This document shows positions 56,943 to 63,829 of a stretch of DNA of 64,000 nucleotides, piece after piece. The notes beneath the pieces are model-generated. The model did not search any database and was not told the origin of the DNA. It saw only the letters and a program-made list of their open reading frames with translations. The position numbers and the translations under genes were made by a program. The DNA is from Clostridia bacterium (GTDB lineage Bacteria > Bacillota > Clostridia > Oscillospirales > CAG-272), in contig JAGALS010000059.1 of NCBI GenBank assembly GCA_017625065.1, forward strand, positions 24,696 through 88,695, in the 5' to 3' direction. Positions within the stretch are counted from its first letter, which is position 1, and the number at the start of each line of letters is the position of its first letter.

Positions 56943-57935
56943 TTAGGATTCAGAATCTTCTAATTTCGCCAATTCCGCCTTCAGTTCAGCTATTTTAGCC
57001 AATAATTCTTCGCGGTCTATTTGGGTATGATGACCAGCGATTGTGGCAATAGCATTTTTTGCATCCGATTCAGGAATACCGCCGAAAGGTAATCCTTTGC
57101 AATTTGTTCCAAAGATCAATTTGTTGTTTTGTTTGGTGTATCCTTTAATTTTGCCTCCCGGGAACGGAAAAGTATGTGTTAAATCCCAATCCCCAAAGTT
57201 CTGCCCGAATACGACTTGGTTAACCGAAATCAATGTAACATCGGGATTAAGCAAGTCAAAAAGTTCATTAAACAAAGACGTGTTTTGGATAAGTGCTTTT
57301 TGGCTAGTGGTTAAGGGTCCAAAGGTCGGATCTGTTGCAATAGCGGTGTATATGTCGATATGAATGGCTGTGTTGGATTTATCACCGTATTTACCGCCAT
57401 AAGAACAATTTAAAACACTCATTAACCTGTTGTATTTATCAAACCAATTATATGGATTATCGTAAAAATAACGATTGAGAGTAGTGTAAAGCGCATCAAT
57501 GGCGTCGGAACCTGAAAAATCAACAATCTTAAAACGAGGTAGGGCGGGCAGCTGCGGAAACTCCTTCAACGATGGATTAAGAGCAATAGTTAAAATCCGT
57601 TTGGGAGATCGTTGGTATTTTTCAATGTCACCAAACCATACAACGGGAATGGAAGGAGAAACAACAAAAGGAAGATCTTTTTTGCTTATAAAATCATCCA
57701 CGTATTTTTGAAGCAAGTTTTTTAAAGCGTCGGTATAAATGGGAGGGGTGGCGGTTGCACACGAGATCGTTGCAGGTGCATTAATTTCTTGTAAAATCCC
57801 TTTTTCGATTGCCCAAGGATAGAGAAAGATTTTTTCCAAGCCTTGGAATTTGACCTTAATTTGCATTTGACCGTAGTCCTCAAAAGGGCCTACCGAAGTG
57901 CCTACACCAAAACTATTATGCTGAAAATATCTCAT
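56943..57935 (-). CDS. Hypothetical protein in a low-GC islet; N-terminal PcrA/UvrD-C-terminal-like Tudor segment, central MUG/UDG-like 'ALNPS' region, C-terminal coiled coil
   Basis: Clean 330-aa ORF with RBS AGGAGA and TGCTATAAT upstream. The domain ideas rest only on short motif resemblance. Confidence 0.8.
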   Translation of the reverse strand: MRYFQHNSFGVGTSVGPFEDYGQMQIKVKFQGLEKIFLYPWAIEKGILQEINAPATISCATATPPIYTDALKNLLQKYVDDFISKKDLPFVVSPSIPVVWFGDIEKYQRSPKRILTIALNPSLKEFPQLPALPRFKIVDFSGSDAIDALYTTLNRYFYDNPYNWFDKYNRLMSVLNCSYGGKYGDKSNTAIHIDIYTAIATDPTFGPLTTSQKALIQNTSLFNELFDLLNPDVTLISVNQVVFGQNFGDWDLTHTFPFPGGKIKGYTKQNNKLIFGTNCKGLPFGGIPESDAKNAIATIAGHHTQIDREELLAKIAELKAELAKLEDSES

Positions 57936-57970: not shown

Positions 57971-58004
57971 CGAAAAGGGCCATCGCGTGCGATAGCCCTT
58001 TTTC
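57971..58004 (-). terminator. Intrinsic terminator ending the microcompartment operon
   Basis: On the minus strand: AAGGGCTATCG-cac-CGATGGCCCTT followed by TTCG/T-rich sequence, 3 nt after the last stop codon. Confidence 0.65.
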
Positions 58005-58006
58005 AA

Positions 58007-58270
58007 TTAAAGCAGATAATAGGGAAGCTCGCTGCCAAGCCCGATCTTCTCCACGGCAGCCTTTTCGCTGTGTCCTGTGACCTTTTCGACCACCTCGGGC
58101 GCGATCTTGCTGACAACTGCTGCCTTAACGGGTGCAGCTTTTGCGGCAGATTGCTTGGGGGCGGACTTTGTGCTAGCGGCTTTCTTTGCTACCGCGGCGG
58201 TAGCTGTCTTTGCGGGAGTTTGTGTGGGCTTTGCCACACGCTTTTGGATGCTGTCTTTACCGAGTGACAT
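58007..58270 (-). CDS. Small Ala/Lys/Pro-rich, probably disordered protein (87 aa); candidate ParA partner
   Basis: The ATG at 58270 has AAAGGAG 9 nt upstream. It overlaps the ParA gene's 3' end by 14 nt. The core is low-complexity (AKPTQTPAKTATAAVAKKAASTKSAPKQSAAKAAPVKAA), followed by a short structured-looking tail (VVEKV...AVEKIGLGSELPYYLL). Confidence 0.7.
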   Translation of the reverse strand: MSLGKDSIQKRVAKPTQTPAKTATAAVAKKAASTKSAPKQSAAKAAPVKAAVVSKIAPEVVEKVTGHSEKAAVEKIGLGSELPYYLL

Positions 58271-59048
58271 ATTTCTTGATCTCCTTTGCAAGTTCCATAT
58301 ATTCTTTTGCCGCACGGCTGTTTTTCTTGTAAGCCATAACGGGCTTGCTCACGTCCTGCGACCATTCCACGGTGCTGTCGATGCGAATGATGGTCTCAAA
58401 GAGCCGCACGTTTTCAAGCGAGGAAAGGGTATCAACCGTCTGCTTGAAGTAGTTCTTGCGCTCGTTTGCCTTGGTGATGGCAATGCCAAGGAGGTTAAGG
58501 TTGGGCGCGACCTGCTTGATCTGTTCGTAAAACTCAAACATATTGGCAATGCCAAAGAGCCCCCAGGGCGAGGATTCCACGGGAATGACAAGGTGATCGC
58601 TGGCACACATAATGTTCATCACCCAACAGCCAAGTGTGGGGGGCGCATCGATCAGTATGTAGTCATATTTACCGCTTGCCTTGATGCGGTCAAGACCTTT
58701 TTTCAGAATGAACTCGCGCTGCCACTTGGTGAACAGATCGAACTCAATGCTACTCATCAGAGTGGAGGAGGGGATCACATCCAGCCCCTTGTACTCGGTG
58801 TTTACAATAAAATCAGTCAGATCCTTTTGATCCACAACGCCGCGATAGAGGTTGCGATCGCTTTTTGCGAACGCGAGAGAGGTCTCGTCGTCAAAAAAGG
58901 AAAGCGTGAGGTTCATTTGCATATCGCCGTCGATCAGCAGAACCTTTTTTCCGAGCGTGGAAAGCGCGTAGCCGACGTTGGCGCAGGTGGTAGACTTACC
59001 GCTGCCGCCCTTGTTGTTTGCAAAACAGATGGTTTTTGTGATTGCCAT
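58257..59048 (-). CDS. ParA/Soj/MinD-family ATPase
   Basis: Deviant Walker A NNKGGSGKST and the DAPP Walker B region; 263 aa. It starts 15 nt after the EutP/PduV gene. Confidence 0.9.
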   Translation of the reverse strand: MAITKTICFANNKGGSGKSTTCANVGYALSTLGKKVLLIDGDMQMNLTLSFFDDETSLAFAKSDRNLYRGVVDQKDLTDFIVNTEYKGLDVIPSSTLMSSIEFDLFTKWQREFILKKGLDRIKASGKYDYILIDAPPTLGCWVMNIMCASDHLVIPVESSPWGLFGIANMFEFYEQIKQVAPNLNLLGIAITKANERKNYFKQTVDTLSSLENVRLFETIIRIDSTVEWSQDVSKPVMAYKKNSRAAKEYMELAKEIKKYVTR

Positions 59049-59063
59049 AGCTTAACATCCTTT

Positions 59064-59492
59064 TCATTGATTTAAATAATCGATGATATCATTCAGGCCC
59101 TCGCCTGTATAAGAGGAAACGTAAAACAGCTTTTTACACCCGCAATTTCGCAGCCAAAGCTCGGCAAGCGGCACGTTGGCATCGGGCTTGTCGATCCCCG
59201 TAATGATGCCCACCACCTCGCGGTTGACGTGGTGAGTGCAATTGGGGGGGAAGACGCAGAACGGCTCGTTTGCGCTGATGACAAGTCCGATCACGTCCGC
59301 CTCATAGGAATAGACCGCAAGCGCCGCGCTGAGCGTATGCACCTCGGTATATTCGCCGGGCGTGTCGATGATGGTGTCGGTATAGTTGATGTATTGGGTT
59401 TTGCAGTAATGCAGTTGCTCGCCCTTGAGAGCTTGTGTCAGCGTGGTCTTTCCCGCCGCGACACGCCCCATCAGGATCATTTTTTTCATCAT
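59064..59492 (-). CDS. EutP/PduV-family microcompartment GTPase
   Basis: P-loop GRVAAGKTTL and DTPGEY, strongly PduV-like. Confidence 0.88.
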   Translation of the reverse strand: MMKKMILMGRVAAGKTTLTQALKGEQLHYCKTQYINYTDTIIDTPGEYTEVHTLSAALAVYSYEADVIGLVISANEPFCVFPPNCTHHVNREVVGIITGIDKPDANVPLAELWLRNCGCKKLFYVSSYTGEGLNDIIDYLNQ

Positions 59493-59493
59493 T

Positions 59494-59889
59494 TTACGTG
59501 CGCGTCACGTCACATACCGAAAACTTCAAGGTGTTTTTGAAGTAGGTCGTGATCGCTTCAAAGGAAGCCTCGACCTCATCCACCGTTCCCGTGATGATCA
59601 GCGTGCCCGAAAAACGGTCCACAAAGCCAAGCTCCGCGCCCGATGCCTTCAGGGCAATGTCGGCGGTGATGACCGCAGTCTCGGCGGGCGAGATGGTCAA
59701 AACACCGATGGCGGCGCGTTGATAATCGAGCTTTGGATCAAGTCCCATCTTCTGATAAAGGATGGGGTCGGGATTTGCAATAACGTGCGCAAGTGTGATC
59801 TGCCGTCCGGGGACAAGCTCCTGCACGATGCGCATTTTATCTCTCATTTCCATAGATTCCATAATGATCTCCTTGTTTTGTGCGGTCAA
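59494..59889 (-). CDS. Circularly permuted BMC shell protein, PduU/EutS type
   Basis: VPGRQITLAHVIANP...GFVDRFSG...VCDVTRT matches PduU closely by recall. Confidence 0.85.
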   Translation of the reverse strand: MTAQNKEIIMESMEMRDKMRIVQELVPGRQITLAHVIANPDPILYQKMGLDPKLDYQRAAIGVLTISPAETAVITADIALKASGAELGFVDRFSGTLIITGTVDEVEASFEAITTYFKNTLKFSVCDVTRT

Positions 59890-60677
59890 CCGCCGATCTG
59901 CACGTGCAGTCGGGGAGCCGCAAGGCGCGCCGCTGCCGCAAGGCGCTCCATATCCTCATTTGTGGGCGGTGTGATGTGTAAGAGCGAGTATTCACGTCCA
60001 AGTCCTGCGTATTTATCCTGCCCCAAGCGATGATAGGGAAGCAGATGCAGCTCGTTTACACGGGGGAGTGAGCTTGCAAAGGCGGCGATCGCCGCGATCT
60101 CCTCGCTCGTCGCGTTAAAGGTCGGTACAACGGGCACGCGGATGATCAGCTCCTTCGCGTTTTCCGCAATGTATCGCGCGTTTTCCAGTATCGCGTCATT
60201 GGGCTTTCCGCAAAAGGCGCGGTGCTTTTCGCTGTCCACGTGCTTGATGTCCATCAGGAAGTGATCCACGTGGGGGAGGAGTCTGTCCACCACCTCGCGC
60301 GAGGCAAATGCCGTTGTTTCGATCGCGGTGTCGTAGCCGTATTCGTGCACGGCACGGAGCAGCGCTTCGGAAAACTCGGGTTGCGCCATACACTCGCCAC
60401 CCGAAAGGGTGACACCACCGCCGCTGCGCTGGTAGTAAACAGCATCCTTGATGATCTCATCCATCACCTCGGCAACCGTCACGTCCTTGCCGACAATGCG
60501 CGTTTTACCGCCCTGTGTCAGCTCTTGCTGCTTGTATTCCTGCGATTCGGGGTTGCAGCACCAACGGCAACGCAGATAGCAGCCCTTCAAAAAGACGATG
60601 GTGCGAATGCCGGGGCCGTCGTGAATGGAGTAACGCTGTATGTCAAAAATGCGGCCCGTTTGCTCGTAAATATTCAT
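59886..60677 (-). CDS. Glycyl-radical enzyme activating protein (radical SAM)
   Basis: HDGPGIRTIVFLKGCYLRCRWCCNPE. The start is at 60677 (AAAGGAG RBS); the track start at 60743 would overlap the GRE gene. Confidence 0.9.
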   Translation of the reverse strand: MNIYEQTGRIFDIQRYSIHDGPGIRTIVFLKGCYLRCRWCCNPESQEYKQQELTQGGKTRIVGKDVTVAEVMDEIIKDAVYYQRSGGGVTLSGGECMAQPEFSEALLRAVHEYGYDTAIETTAFASREVVDRLLPHVDHFLMDIKHVDSEKHRAFCGKPNDAILENARYIAENAKELIIRVPVVPTFNATSEEIAAIAAFASSLPRVNELHLLPYHRLGQDKYAGLGREYSLLHITPPTNEDMERLAAAARLAAPRLHVQIGG

Positions 60678-60705
60678 AAAAGCATTACTCCTTTCATCAT
60701 TTTTC

Positions 60706-60731
60706 GTAGGGGGCGACGTCCTCGACGCCCC
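60706..60731 (+). repeat. REP-like GTAG hairpin with a covarying stem (GTAG-GGGGCG-ACGTCCTCGA-CGCCCC)
   Basis: Lies in the 56-nt spacer between the GRE and activase genes. Confidence 0.65.
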
Positions 60732-60733
60732 GA

Positions 60734-63265
60734 TTATTGCCACCCTTGCTCGGTACGGGCAATGATATCGTCCTGCAGCGAGCGCAACAGGGTGGTGAAC
60801 AGAGCACTGTAGCCTGCCACACGAACCACAAGGTTCTTATATTTTTCGGGGTTCTTTTGCGCATCGATCAAGGTCTCGCGGGAAACCACGTTGTACTGTA
60901 CGTGCATACCCTTCTGATCGAAATAGCCGCGCAGATATGCCACAAATTTTTCAAGGCTTGCCATCGAGGAAAGCGCCGAGGGGTGGAACTTTTGGTTGAA
61001 CAGTGTGCCGTTGGAGGCAATGCCGTGATCCAGTCGCGCCACCGAGTTCGCAGTTGCCGTCGGACCCTTCGTGTCGCGTCCCGAAGCGGGACCGACGCCG
61101 TCGGCAATAGGGGTAAAGGCAAGACGACCGTCGGGGGTAGCACCCGTCTGGTAACCGAGCGGCACGTTTGCCGAAACGGGATAGAGTCCCGCCTGGAAGC
61201 TGCCGCCGCGGGGGTTGGTGTACTTTTCAAGCACCTTGGTGTAGGTGTTGCCCACCTCACGGGCAAAGGCGTCAACTTCGGGGATATCGTTACCGTATTT
61301 GGGCAACGCCTCGATCATCTTGAGGATCTCGGCATAGCGCGCTTTCTTTTTCTCGTCGACCGTTTCGGCGTTGGTGAGGTTGCGGTAGACCGCGCGGATG
61401 ACGTCATCACTGACGTTCGCACCGCCGAGCATCAGCTCTTGCGTGATCTGTGTGGTCAGCTCCAAAGCCTTTTTGGGAAGAATACCCTTGCCGAAGTTGT
61501 CGGCAAGCGCTTGCTTCAGTTCTGCCATCGTGACCTTCTTTTCATCGAAAACAAGGGTCTTGACGGCAAGCAGCGCGTCGGTCATGTTCGCAATGCCAAA
61601 GCCCTGCGGACCTGTGAAGTTGTAATGCGCGCCACCTTCCTGAATACTCATACCGCGCTCGATGCAATCGTCGCAAAGGCAGGATTCAAAGGGCAGGGGA
61701 CAGCGCACGCTGTGGGCATAGTCCACGGCGTTGTCGGCATGCACCATCATTTCGATCATATGGGTCTGCTGCTTCTTGTAAGCGTCAAAGAACTCCTCAA
61801 ACGAGGACATCTGCTCGACCTCGCCCGTACGCAGGCCGATCTGCTTGCCCTTGTCCATACCGTTGGAAAAGACCAGCTCAAGCGGACGGCACATATTGAA
61901 GAATGCCGCGTCGTGCCAGCCGTCGGTCTTTGCGCCCTTCTGGGGCTCGACACAGCCGATGATGCAGTAATCACGGGCATCCTCAAGGGTCAGACCTCTT
62001 GCCATGATCGAGGGGATGATGACCTCGTCGTTGTAGAATGCGGGCACGCCAAGTCCCTCGCGCGTGACCGATGCCGCCTTGATCAGGAGATCGTGGGGCG
62101 AGCAGTTCCATACGCGGATCGAAAGAGAGGGCTGGGGAAGGCGCACGTGCATCGTCGCTTCCATACACATATAGGAAAGATCGTTGGTGACGTCCACGCC
62201 CTGCTCGTTCTGACCGCCGACGATCAGGTTTTGGAACAGACCATAGCCCGCAAAGCCTTCAGCAGAGGCGGCGTCGCGGACCTTGTTGAGGTCGTTGAGC
62301 TTGACCCAGATGCAGTCCAGATATTCCTGCGCCTGCTCGTGGGTGAGCTTGCCCTCGTCAATGTCCTTTTTGAACAGAGGATACATATATTGGTCAAATC
62401 GACCGGGAGAGATCGAGTGACCGCTGGATTCACATTGCAACAGCTGCTGTATAAACCAGAACGCCTGGCACGCCTCATAGAAATTACGCGCGGGCTTTGC
62501 GGGCACACGTGTACAGTTTTCGGCGATAGTCAGCAGCTCCGCACGGCGTGCGGGATCTGCACAATACGATGCCTCACGGCGCGCAAGATCGGCATAACGG
62601 GCGGCGTAAGCGATCACCGCCTCGCAGCTTTCGATCACCGCTTCCTGGAATTGCTTGCGGCGCTGATAATCGCCGTTGCCGATGTGCAGCTTTGCCATCG
62701 CGGCCTTTGCCTCGGCGATGATAGCCTCAAGACCCTCGTTGATCACTTTCGCGTAGTTGACGTTGATGTGACCGACGCCGTTGTAAAAATAGTTACCGAC
62801 GGTGAAGACACCGTGGTTGAGGAACACGTCAAGCACGTCGGGGTCCATACCGGAGGCTGCAAGATCGCAAACCGTCTTACCTTTCCAGTAAGGATGGACC
62901 TTTTTCAGGCGTTCCACGGTTTCATTGGAAATGTAAAAGGGGTCTGCTTCGCGCGTGGCGAGTGTGCCGAATTCGGGTTCCAGCCACTCAAAGGAATACT
63001 CGGGGAAGGTCTGGCAGCCTCTGGGCGCGATCGAGTTACTGCCCACGATCAGCTCGTCGGGGCGGATCACGATCGGAATATTTTCAAGAATATGACGGAA
63101 AGCAGCGCTACGGCGCTTGATAATGGGCAAAGACTCGGTCTGCTTGTAGCTTTCGGTCACAAGCTCGGCGCGATCTGCCTCGATCTCGGGCATCTTGGCA
63201 AAGAGATGCTCGATCAATCGGTCGATACGCGGGCTCTTTTTAATGACAAATTTCAATTCTCCCAT
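60734..63265 (-). CDS. Glycyl radical enzyme, PFL-fold; diol-dehydratase-like active site
   Basis: RVAGYSA glycyl loop (Gly818), GCVEP Cys loop (Cys438/Glu440), His166 and Asp452. Confidence 0.92.
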   Translation of the reverse strand: MGELKFVIKKSPRIDRLIEHLFAKMPEIEADRAELVTESYKQTESLPIIKRRSAAFRHILENIPIVIRPDELIVGSNSIAPRGCQTFPEYSFEWLEPEFGTLATREADPFYISNETVERLKKVHPYWKGKTVCDLAASGMDPDVLDVFLNHGVFTVGNYFYNGVGHINVNYAKVINEGLEAIIAEAKAAMAKLHIGNGDYQRRKQFQEAVIESCEAVIAYAARYADLARREASYCADPARRAELLTIAENCTRVPAKPARNFYEACQAFWFIQQLLQCESSGHSISPGRFDQYMYPLFKKDIDEGKLTHEQAQEYLDCIWVKLNDLNKVRDAASAEGFAGYGLFQNLIVGGQNEQGVDVTNDLSYMCMEATMHVRLPQPSLSIRVWNCSPHDLLIKAASVTREGLGVPAFYNDEVIIPSIMARGLTLEDARDYCIIGCVEPQKGAKTDGWHDAAFFNMCRPLELVFSNGMDKGKQIGLRTGEVEQMSSFEEFFDAYKKQQTHMIEMMVHADNAVDYAHSVRCPLPFESCLCDDCIERGMSIQEGGAHYNFTGPQGFGIANMTDALLAVKTLVFDEKKVTMAELKQALADNFGKGILPKKALELTTQITQELMLGGANVSDDVIRAVYRNLTNAETVDEKKKARYAEILKMIEALPKYGNDIPEVDAFAREVGNTYTKVLEKYTNPRGGSFQAGLYPVSANVPLGYQTGATPDGRLAFTPIADGVGPASGRDTKGPTATANSVARLDHGIASNGTLFNQKFHPSALSSMASLEKFVAYLRGYFDQKGMHVQYNVVSRETLIDAQKNPEKYKNLVVRVAGYSALFTTLLRSLQDDIIARTEQGWQ

Positions 63266-63283: not shown

Positions 63284-63829
63284 TCAGATCTGTTTCCAAA
63301 GCAGCTCGTGGGGGGCTGCGATCACGGAATTGCCCGTGAACATGCCCTGTGCCTTGGCGTAATCGGAGCCTGCCTCAACGGCGGCGTTGACGTCACCGAT
63401 CTCACCGGTGAGCAACACCATCCCCTTGCCGCCCATGCCGCGCGAAACGCGCAGCTCGAAGATCTCGACCCTTGCGGTCTTGACGGCAACGTCTGCCGCC
63501 TTGATGGCACTCGCGGCGGAGTAGGTCTCGATCACACCGAGCGAGCCTTTTTTCTCCGCAGTCTGCGTGCCGAAAAGTGCCGTGATGACCTGCTCGTCGA
63601 TGCGACCCATGATCGAAGCATCGACAAGGCGCTCCTCAAAGCGCTCCTTGATGTGCTCGACGGCGGCGGTCACGTTGGAGATCGTGCCCGTCAGGATCAT
63701 TTCATATTTACCGGGGCAGGCGGGATGCGCCGAGATCAGCGTGATATCCGCGCTTTTCAGCGCGGCATCGGTCGCCTCAATGCCCTTTGCTATGCTTTTT
63801 AATTCAACAACGCCAATCGTTTGATACAT
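63284..63829 (-). CDS. Tandem-domain BMC-T shell protein, PduT type
   Basis: Two BMC domains in 181 aa. Cys38 in HPACPGK sits at the position of the PduT Fe-S ligand. Confidence 0.88.
   Translation of the reverse strand: MYQTIGVVELKSIAKGIEATDAALKSADITLISAHPACPGKYEMILTGTISNVTAAVEHIKERFEERLVDASIMGRIDEQVITALFGTQTAEKKGSLGVIETYSAASAIKAADVAVKTARVEIFELRVSRGMGGKGMVLLTGEIGDVNAAVEAGSDYAKAQGMFTGNSVIAAPHELLWKQI

Follow-up and report, generated by a model that had tools for sequence, protein, structure and literature searches.

A stretch of 64,000 nucleotides from Clostridia bacterium (assembly GCA_017625065.1, contig JAGALS010000059.1, positions 24,696 to 88,695; hereafter the window) carries, at the end of a minus-strand operon for a glycyl-radical microcompartment (GRM), the gene of a ParA/Soj-type ATPase followed by the gene of a small disordered protein, here called the partner. 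We propose that the two proteins probably form an McdAB-like positioning module for a catabolic fucose/rhamnose microcompartment that uses a glycyl-radical 1,2-propanediol dehydratase. The term McdAB-like denotes a way of working and not shared descent, because by sequence the ATPase is nearer to Soj/ParA than to the one structurally solved McdA. The proposal starts from what was observed directly: the order of the genes, signals of co-transcription, conservation, the arrangement of motifs, disorder, ATPase motifs that are intact and the lack of a DNA centromere system. A preliminary description of this DNA had put forward an McdAB-like module with a disordered adaptor; its synteny, its coding status and its architecture stood up.

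The ParA-partner pair

The features of the pair are as follows (all on the minus strand; aa, amino acids; nt, nucleotides).

58257..59048, minus strand: ParA/Soj-type ATPase, 263 aa, 15 nt after the PduV/EutP gene; AAA_31 and CbiA family matches
58989..59012, minus strand: deviant Walker A motif K13-G-G-S-G-K18-S-T20 of ParA, read from the translation; signature lysine K13
58007..58270, minus strand: 87-aa disordered partner protein, ATG at 58270 and stop at 58007, overlapping the end of ParA by 14 nt
58281..58285, minus strand: Shine-Dalgarno sequence AGGAG of the partner, within the coding region of ParA; kept by 78-79 of 79 loci at -15 to -11
58229..58270, minus strand: partner N-terminal motif MSLGKDSIQKRVAK, residues 1-14, defined by conserved residues; AlphaFold2 helix 5-12
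58079..58099, minus strand: partner central element P58-E-V-V-E-K-V64; P58 invariant, E59 and V64 nearly so
58010..58039, minus strand: partner C-terminal motif L-G-S-E-L-P-Y-Y-L-L, residues 78-87, defined by conservation in 79 sequences
57973..58002, minus strand: intrinsic terminator closing the operon, a 13-bp stem with 6 G-C pairs, then a T-run

The order PduT-like shell protein, glycyl radical enzyme (GRE), activase, PduU-like shell protein, PduV/EutP, ParA and 87-aa open reading frame (ORF), as given in the preliminary description, was confirmed by coordinates and family matches. The same holds for the 15-nt gap before ParA, which contains no intervening terminator, for the 14-nt overlap of ParA with the small ORF and, in the translation, for the deviant Walker A motif KGGSGKST. 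The low-complexity nature of the 87-aa product (21% Ala, 16% Lys) and its LPYYLL tail were likewise found as described, and the terminator does follow directly after the last stop (58002-57973), its onset being 4 nt past the partner stop codon.

Conservation of the pair in related genomes

A scan for ParA with one genome per species gave 194 relatives, of which the best 80 of 194 were fetched. All of these come from the guts of ruminants and humans and belong to uncultured Clostridia, Oscillospiraceae or Eubacteriales; their ParA is 70-89% identical to that of the window. ParA stands at the 3' end of the same locus, directly past the shell genes, in 80/80 of these species-level genomes, and it directly follows PduV in all 80 loci but one (L067). 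The order PduT, GRE, activase, PduU, PduV, ParA is kept wherever the DNA reaches far enough, and so are the genes upstream. The partner ORF is present in 78/80 loci, the other two contigs ending too early, and it shares the same 14-nt overlap with ParA in 76 of them. Since the arrangement is conserved in 80/80 relatives and does not come from a single locus, the pairing is beyond chance.

More distant partners were found by a profile search, after which their contigs were looked up. Here too a more distant ParA (64-71% identical) ends GRM loci, namely L084, L085, L088-L091 and the rearranged L087. In all, about 90 loci with differing downstream contexts have the pair as the last genes of the compartment operon. 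Co-occurrence of the pair with bacterial microcompartment (BMC) genes in relatives, on which the preliminary description had staked its proposal, is borne out in the 80/80 species-level genomes and in five more distant GRM loci; among the relatives the pair was also never seen to travel with ParB, parS or an integrative element.

A few loci depart from the common order. In L067, L068 and L080 no GRE and activase genes separate PduT from PduU, and ParA of L067 comes right after PduT. In locus L087 the activase gene is upstream of the aldolase, and ParA is immediately preceded by a DeoR regulator; its ParA is 65% identical to that of the window, and its shell proteins and enzymes only 40-55%. 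ParA and partner are still at the 3' end in all four. An initial reading of L067, L068 and L080, that the module stays when the GRE is lost, was withdrawn because the activase of L087 lies upstream of the aldolase, and the GRE may likewise sit outside the fetched DNA.

The most distant subfamily is represented by L086:9140-10943 and L092:9157-10981 (assemblies GCA_000701625.1 and GCA_000424365.1), with a ParA 54% identical to that of the window. There the pair lies between a sugar ABC transporter and uvrC, a rhaM-like gene follows the pair, and the partner sequence reads MTLGKSSIERAA…DELPTFLL. Both contigs measure about 320 kb, for which reason the genomes may be those of cultured isolates.

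The partner protein

Is the small ORF a gene at all? The program-made list of ORFs gives a 102-aa version from an upstream GTG, but the ATG start is the one kept in 79/79 relatives. The partner comparison set consists of 79 sequences, all different. At invariant partner residues several synonymous codons are used (six at L(-2), three at P(-5), three at I8), and it is for this reason that selection can be said to act on the partner protein. The claim that the small ORF is conserved as coding is upheld by the start, the Shine-Dalgarno sequence, the overlap, synonymous codon use and in-frame length variation. A chance ORF or frameshift artefact is ruled out by the conserved start, Shine-Dalgarno sequence, overlap, terminal motifs and synonymous codons. 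One feature of the overlap concerns both genes: in the window (58257-58270, minus strand) and in 76 related loci it reads A-T-[CA]-G-G-T-A-A-[AG]. It encodes the invariant Arg263 and the stop of ParA and, in the other frame, the invariant Gly4-Lys5 of the partner; therefore part of the conservation of the N-terminal motif is shared with the last codons of ParA.

The architecture of the partner is that of two conserved ends separated by a variable spacer. The N-terminal motif has the form M-[PS]-[ILV]-G-K-x-S-I-x-[KR]-[RV]-[VA]-[AK]-K in the 79 sequences; M1, G4, K5, S7 and I8 are invariant and R11, V12, A13 and K14 nearly so. This N-terminus is positively charged, with K10, R11 and K14 largely conserved beside K5, and is presumed, by analogy, to be the peptide that binds ParA and stimulates its ATPase. 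The spacer, made up of 20% Ala, 16% Lys, 13% Thr, 11% Pro, 10% Glu and 10% Val over the 79 sequences, is highly variable, the total length ranges from 63 to 154 aa, with variation in frame, and the net charge is positive in 77/79 proteins and reaches +16. A central element, PE[VT]VEKV.G in the family, is built around an invariant Pro. The C-terminal motif has the family form [ILV]-G-x-x-[ML]-P-x-[YFHW]-L-[LM] with P(-5) and L(-2) invariant; at position -3, 45 of the sequences have Y, 19 have F, 13 have H and 2 have W, and in the window the aromatic residues near the end are Y84 and Y85 of 87. This motif is presumed, on the same grounds of analogy, to bind the shell.

AlphaFold2, run on a 58-sequence alignment, gave a mean pLDDT of 56 and a pTM of 0.14 and predicted no fold; the sole structured elements are two short helices, one spanning residues 5-12 and the other 58-64, and a C-terminal turn. 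As modelled, the partner is a disordered protein with short linear motifs; the biased composition agrees with this, and the disorder assumed in the preliminary description is borne out. No family match was found in Pfam, NCBIfam or PHROGs, and the spacer gives weak histone-H1-like matches. The partner family is a small one: out of 5.8 billion proteins its profile recovered 245, and out of 1.84 billion cluster representatives 125. Of the matches listed, none has a functional name; the handful that are named at all have generic names ('hypothetical protein') and, in one case, an evidently spurious automatic label.

Variants of the partner exist in which the middle of the protein is different. 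In L088:10001-10696 (231 aa) and L089:6641-7555 (304 aa) the N- and C-terminal motifs are kept and an FtsK_gamma winged-helix DNA-binding domain (PF09397; 1.5e-16 and 2.4e-13, respectively) lies between them; both genes occupy the same position after ParA in related GRM loci. Another subfamily (L084, L085, L090 and L091, proteins P0247-P0290) has a longer conserved N-terminus, MPIGKNSIKRVANNGYS.V…APDMENS, which points to a further conserved contact past residue 14. It is conceivable, if rather doubtful, that the partner is itself a DNA-contacting adaptor that ties the compartment to the chromosome through its Lys-rich spacer or an FtsK-gamma domain, in which case ParA may only remodel or space the tethers. 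Such an adaptor would be a hybrid of a ParB-type DNA-bound cargo complex and an McdB-type protein-cargo adaptor; to our knowledge none has been described for any microcompartment.

The ParA ATPase

The ATPase scores 176.5 bits against AAA_31 (6e-52; cut-off 27) and 66.4 bits against CbiA (3e-18; cut-off 25.4). Its deviant Walker A motif is invariant across 79 sequences, D42 aligns with the catalytic-site D60 of Myxococcus xanthus ParA, the residue that was mutated in 8RAY to trap the ATP dimer, and the Walker B residue D134 stands in an hhhD-xPP context. With these motifs intact and a family match over its full length, the protein can be assigned by sequence to the ParA/MinD (deviant Walker A) superfamily. 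It has no N-terminal helix-turn-helix (HTH) extension. MinD identity was rejected, since the scores with TIGR01968 (44 bits; cut-off 212.9) and TIGR01969 (87 bits; cut-off 201.75) fall far short.

The nearest entries in the PDB are M. xanthus ParA (8RAY, 2e-31) and Helicobacter pylori Soj (6IUB, 1e-23), and Cyanothece McdA (6NOO) is matched at 8e-13 over residues 5-189. To the question whether the ATPase is of McdA type or of Soj type, raised in the preliminary description, the sequence scores against solved structures suggest an answer in favour of chromosomal Soj/ParA, the comparison with McdA being with one structure.

DNA binding by the ATPase is plausible from its sequence. Eight residues of the C-terminal third are basic in 100% of the ParA clade (K193, R197, K198, K202, R222, K241, K242 and R245), K202 aligns with K199 of H. 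pylori Soj, which is one of four DNA-contacting lysines, and each of the Soj lysines that have no direct match has conserved basic residues no more than three positions away. The pocket that receives the ParB peptide in M. xanthus ParA (L150, L152, L155 and L192) has the counterparts L139, C141, M144 and V180, which are mostly hydrophobic. Cysteines 8, 22, 141 and 148 are conserved across the clade; C141 aligns with M. xanthus L152, in the ParB-peptide-binding loop beside Walker B.

These four cysteines are the only real argument for another view, in which the ATPase would serve in maturation or Fe-S delivery (Mrp/NBP35, CooC or NifH-like) to the activase, PduS and PduT, with the partner as an accessory. 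Several Fe-S proteins are indeed encoded by the locus, and weak partial matches to NifH and NUBPL-type models were obtained, but these extend over no more than the P-loop (residues 3-53) with scores well under the cut-offs, there is no CxxC, and the full-length similarity is to ParA/Soj. Nor does this view give a role to the conserved terminal motifs of the partner; it appears very improbable. Identity with an Mrp/NBP35/ApbC Fe-S carrier was rejected as such, with PF10609 and the ApbC/Mrp models matching residues 3-43 only and no CxxC present.

Search for a DNA partition system

ParA proteins are best known from DNA partition, and the window was searched for the other parts of such a system. 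No ParB was found in the window, nor was a second ParA; around the pair there are no iterated repeats or iterons. A search for parS gave nothing above chance, its only match in the window having three mismatches at position 25 and being equalled in 42/100 shuffles. The statement that no ParB gene or parS-like repeat lies near the pair therefore holds, on family searches, the shuffled parS test and the repeat search. The partner has neither the HTH/CTPase of ParB nor a ribbon-helix-helix as centromere-binding proteins do: there is no domain match and no folded domain in AlphaFold2, which rules out a ribbon-helix-helix partner. Further downstream are sporulation and housekeeping genes, and hence the context of the pair is chromosomal. 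A plasmid or chromosome partition system (ParABS, type Ib) was rejected on this ground and on the lack of ParB, parS, iterons and a ParA paralogue in the window.

A looser version holds that the pair is a DNA partition or tethering module, of type Ib or a degenerate remnant, in which a Lys-rich partner binds DNA and the position beside shell genes is incidental. The basic N-terminal tail is typical of small type Ib plasmid partners, the Lys-rich spacer has a high net charge and weak histone-H1-like matches, two variants contain the FtsK-gamma domain, and one orphan pair stands away from shell genes. Against it, about 90 loci whose downstream chromosomal contexts differ all have the pair closing the compartment operon, the standard partner has no ribbon-helix-helix or HTH fold and no parS or iterons accompany it, and the invariant P-x-aromatic-L-L motif has no counterpart in centromere-binding proteins. 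We regard this version as most unlikely.

Proposed mechanism of the positioning module

By analogy with carboxysome McdAB and with ParABS we infer four things: that ParA binds DNA, that the N-terminal motif binds ParA, that the C-terminal motif binds the shell and that the pair affects the distribution of compartments. In the positioning module, ATP-bound ParA dimers would coat the nucleoid through their conserved basic surface, and the partner would bind the compartment shell through its C-terminal [ML]-P-x-[YFHW]-L-L motif. The long disordered Ala/Lys/Thr/Pro/Glu spacer could then act as a flexible tether that lets the N-terminal helix (I/L-G-K-x-S-I-x-K-R-V) reach the ParA dimer interface, where it would stimulate ATP hydrolysis and free ParA from DNA. 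The local depletion of ParA would make each compartment move towards higher ParA, and the expected outcome is that compartments are kept apart, on the nucleoid, and shared between daughter cells.

Several points weigh against this proposal. In sequence the ATPase resembles chromosomal Soj/ParA more than it does the one structurally solved McdA, and three of the four DNA-contacting lysines of Soj align with Ser, Glu and Asn. At position -3 of the partner, 13/79 sequences have His, which is not a classical aromatic residue. The orphan pair of L086 and L092 has no shell gene within 10 kb, so that the module is not physically linked to shell genes in every case. A possible contact of the partner itself with DNA is hinted at by its Lys-rich spacer and by the FtsK-gamma domain inserted in two variants. 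Finally, a role of such systems in catabolic compartments is still called a suggestion in a 2025 review and in a 2026 study on Salmonella.

The pair might also act on the compartment in some other manner than as a nucleoid ratchet, i.e., as an assembly guide, as a tether to pole, septum or membrane, or as a condensate scaffold regulated by ParA. Linkage to shell genes and the adaptor architecture would fit any role directed at the compartment, a disordered low-complexity partner resembles phase-separating proteins, and nucleoid binding by ParA is itself deduced by analogy. However, inspection by eye revealed no MinD-like C-terminal membrane helix in ParA, whose scores with the MinD models are also far too low; among solved structures it is closest to chromosomal ParAs that bind DNA, and its C-terminal basic residues are strictly conserved. 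Such a role is accordingly rated as unlikely, and the ratchet-type positioning module is retained as the favoured interpretation.

The compartment and its locus

The remaining genes of the operon in the window are listed below (family assignments by Pfam and NCBIfam).

63284..63829, minus strand: PduT-like tandem-BMC (BMC-T) shell protein; two PF00936 domains, 6e-41
60734..63265, minus strand: GRE of the B12-independent 1,2-propanediol dehydratase type; PFL-like and Gly_radical domains
59886..60743, minus strand: glycyl-radical activating enzyme (radical SAM); TIGR02494 at 1.5e-89, above cut-off
59494..59889, minus strand: PduU/EutS-like BMC shell protein; PF00936 8e-12, EutS model NF012012 4.6e-29
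59064..59492, minus strand: EutP/PduV family small NTPase; PF10662 1.5e-48, TIGR02528 139.8 bits against a cut-off of 138.35

The PduT-like gene is the first operon gene wholly within the window, and its product matches TIGR02526 (eut_PduT) over the full length, below the model cut-off. The GRE is the signature enzyme of the compartment and has as its best solved structure 5I2A, a Roseburia diol dehydratase (1205 bits, full length). The activase of the window probably starts near 60677, because the gene call on a same-species contig (L081) is 263 aa long.

The part of the locus beyond the window edge was taken from a same-species contig, the full content being read from L082. It comprises a class II aldolase, an aldehyde dehydrogenase and a zinc alcohol dehydrogenase, together with six BMC-H genes, PduL, EutN and a PduS-like protein, all before PduT. 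Beside shell genes the locus thus has a diol-dehydratase-type GRE with its activase, together with a class II aldolase and an aldehyde-processing core, and by gene content the locus is a GRM of the type that leads from fucose/rhamnose to 1,2-propanediol. As a subtype we take it to be 'GRM5-like', a label from the published GRM classification.

Directly past the terminator lies a 330-aa ORF (window 56943-57935, minus strand) whose C-terminus looks like a heptad repeat and for which Pfam, NCBIfam and PHROGs gave no family. The same-species contig has it too, but it is missing from 80/80 related loci; the operon is therefore taken to end with the small ORF, as this downstream gene is never conserved in relatives. 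Beyond it follow yitT, mntP, yabQ, yabP, an S4-domain gene and HU.

Significance

The pair offers a clean experimental entry point to the placement of catabolic microcompartments in the cell and to their inheritance. The 2025 review still calls for direct studies of their placement, and in the 2026 study the own ParA and MinD of Salmonella, as well as a transplanted carboxysome McdAB, were all without effect on Pdu compartments. Both sources bear out the view of the preliminary description that catabolic compartments have no experimentally characterised positioning system. As a test case the pair has several assets: it consists of two genes, it has three short motifs with the invariant residues K5 and P83 and the mutable Y85, and nature provides variants in spacer length. 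The gene set of the locus is fully known and could be moved into a model host. In Clostridia of gut and rumen, compartments of this type convert fucose and rhamnose to propanediol products. How many there are in a cell and how they are inherited matters for the fermentation of carbohydrates in the gut. A shell-docking peptide of about ten residues, if that is what the C-terminal motif proves to be, would also be a useful tag for the engineering of synthetic compartments.

Comparison with known systems

The partition peptide of ParB offers a first comparison. This ParA-binding peptide is a helix with hydrophobic residues around a central basic residue and docks at the ParA dimer interface; its L-G-R/K(-G-L) core (M. 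xanthus 8RAY; H. pylori Soj 6IUB-6IUD) resembles the I/L-G-K of the partner. The hydrophobic spacing is different, with I3, I8 and V12 in the partner and L11, L15, L18 and I19 in M. xanthus ParB. Unlike ParB, the partner has no ParB fold, CTPase, HTH domain or parS, and its cargo would be a protein shell and not DNA.

PduV/EutP, a small NTPase, was earlier proposed to move Pdu compartments. It belongs to a family unrelated to ParA (the NCBI EutP model bears the name acetate kinase) and is encoded here in the same operon, directly upstream of ParA, i.e., beside the ParA module rather than in its place.

An experimentally characterised counterpart is the alpha-carboxysome McdAB system of Halothiobacillus neapolitanus. 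In both, a ParA with the signature lysine is encoded in a compartment operon with its partner directly downstream, and the partner is almost wholly disordered. The N-terminal 20-residue helix of H. neapolitanus McdB is both required and enough for binding of McdA, with K7 being critical, and releases McdA from DNA; the N-terminal helix of our partner, with its I/L-G-K core, resembles this region. The C-terminal aromatic motif, which takes carboxysome McdB to carboxysomes, would correspond to P-x-aromatic-L-L. No sequence similarity of the partner to McdB was detectable with Pfam and NCBIfam, and McdB proteins themselves share almost no sequence identity. There are also clear differences: the cargo here would be a glycyl-radical compartment of catabolic type and the hosts are strict anaerobes, Tyr/Phe/His stands at the C-terminus where carboxysome McdB has an invariant Trp, and H. 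neapolitanus McdB does not bind DNA, whereas the partner is Lys-rich and sometimes has a DNA-binding domain.

McdAB-like positioning beside compartments other than carboxysomes is a concept already published and is not new here. ParA was listed among the ancillary families of compartment loci by Axen et al. (2014). In section 2.9 and Fig. 8f of MacCready et al. (2021; PMC8359340), McdA/McdB-like genes were reported in or beside four other compartment types, and a C-terminal Tyr was noted within the last four residues of the non-carboxysome McdB-like proteins. Fig. 4 of Basalla et al. (2024; PMC11321042) tabulates C-termini from PDU and GRM loci, with Tyr/Phe conserved in the last five residues. 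The 2020 MBE paper that is cited for the published non-carboxysome candidates makes no mention of other compartments. As far as these sections and figures define it, an McdB-like protein has a basic N-terminus, disorder and a C-terminal aromatic residue and is encoded in or beside a non-carboxysome BMC operon. In the published PDU and GRM candidates, as in the pair described here, the gene of a ParA-type ATPase precedes that of a small disordered partner, both lying in the shell operon or next to it. Where carboxysome McdB has Trp, these candidates have Tyr/Phe among the last 4-5 residues, which by the published descriptions matches the PYYLL end seen here. Relative to the cited sections and figures, the full motif grammar, the conservation over 80 species, the FtsK-gamma variants and the orphan pair are additions. 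The pair is thus well supported as an unusually well-conserved new instance of an already proposed class of positioning systems.

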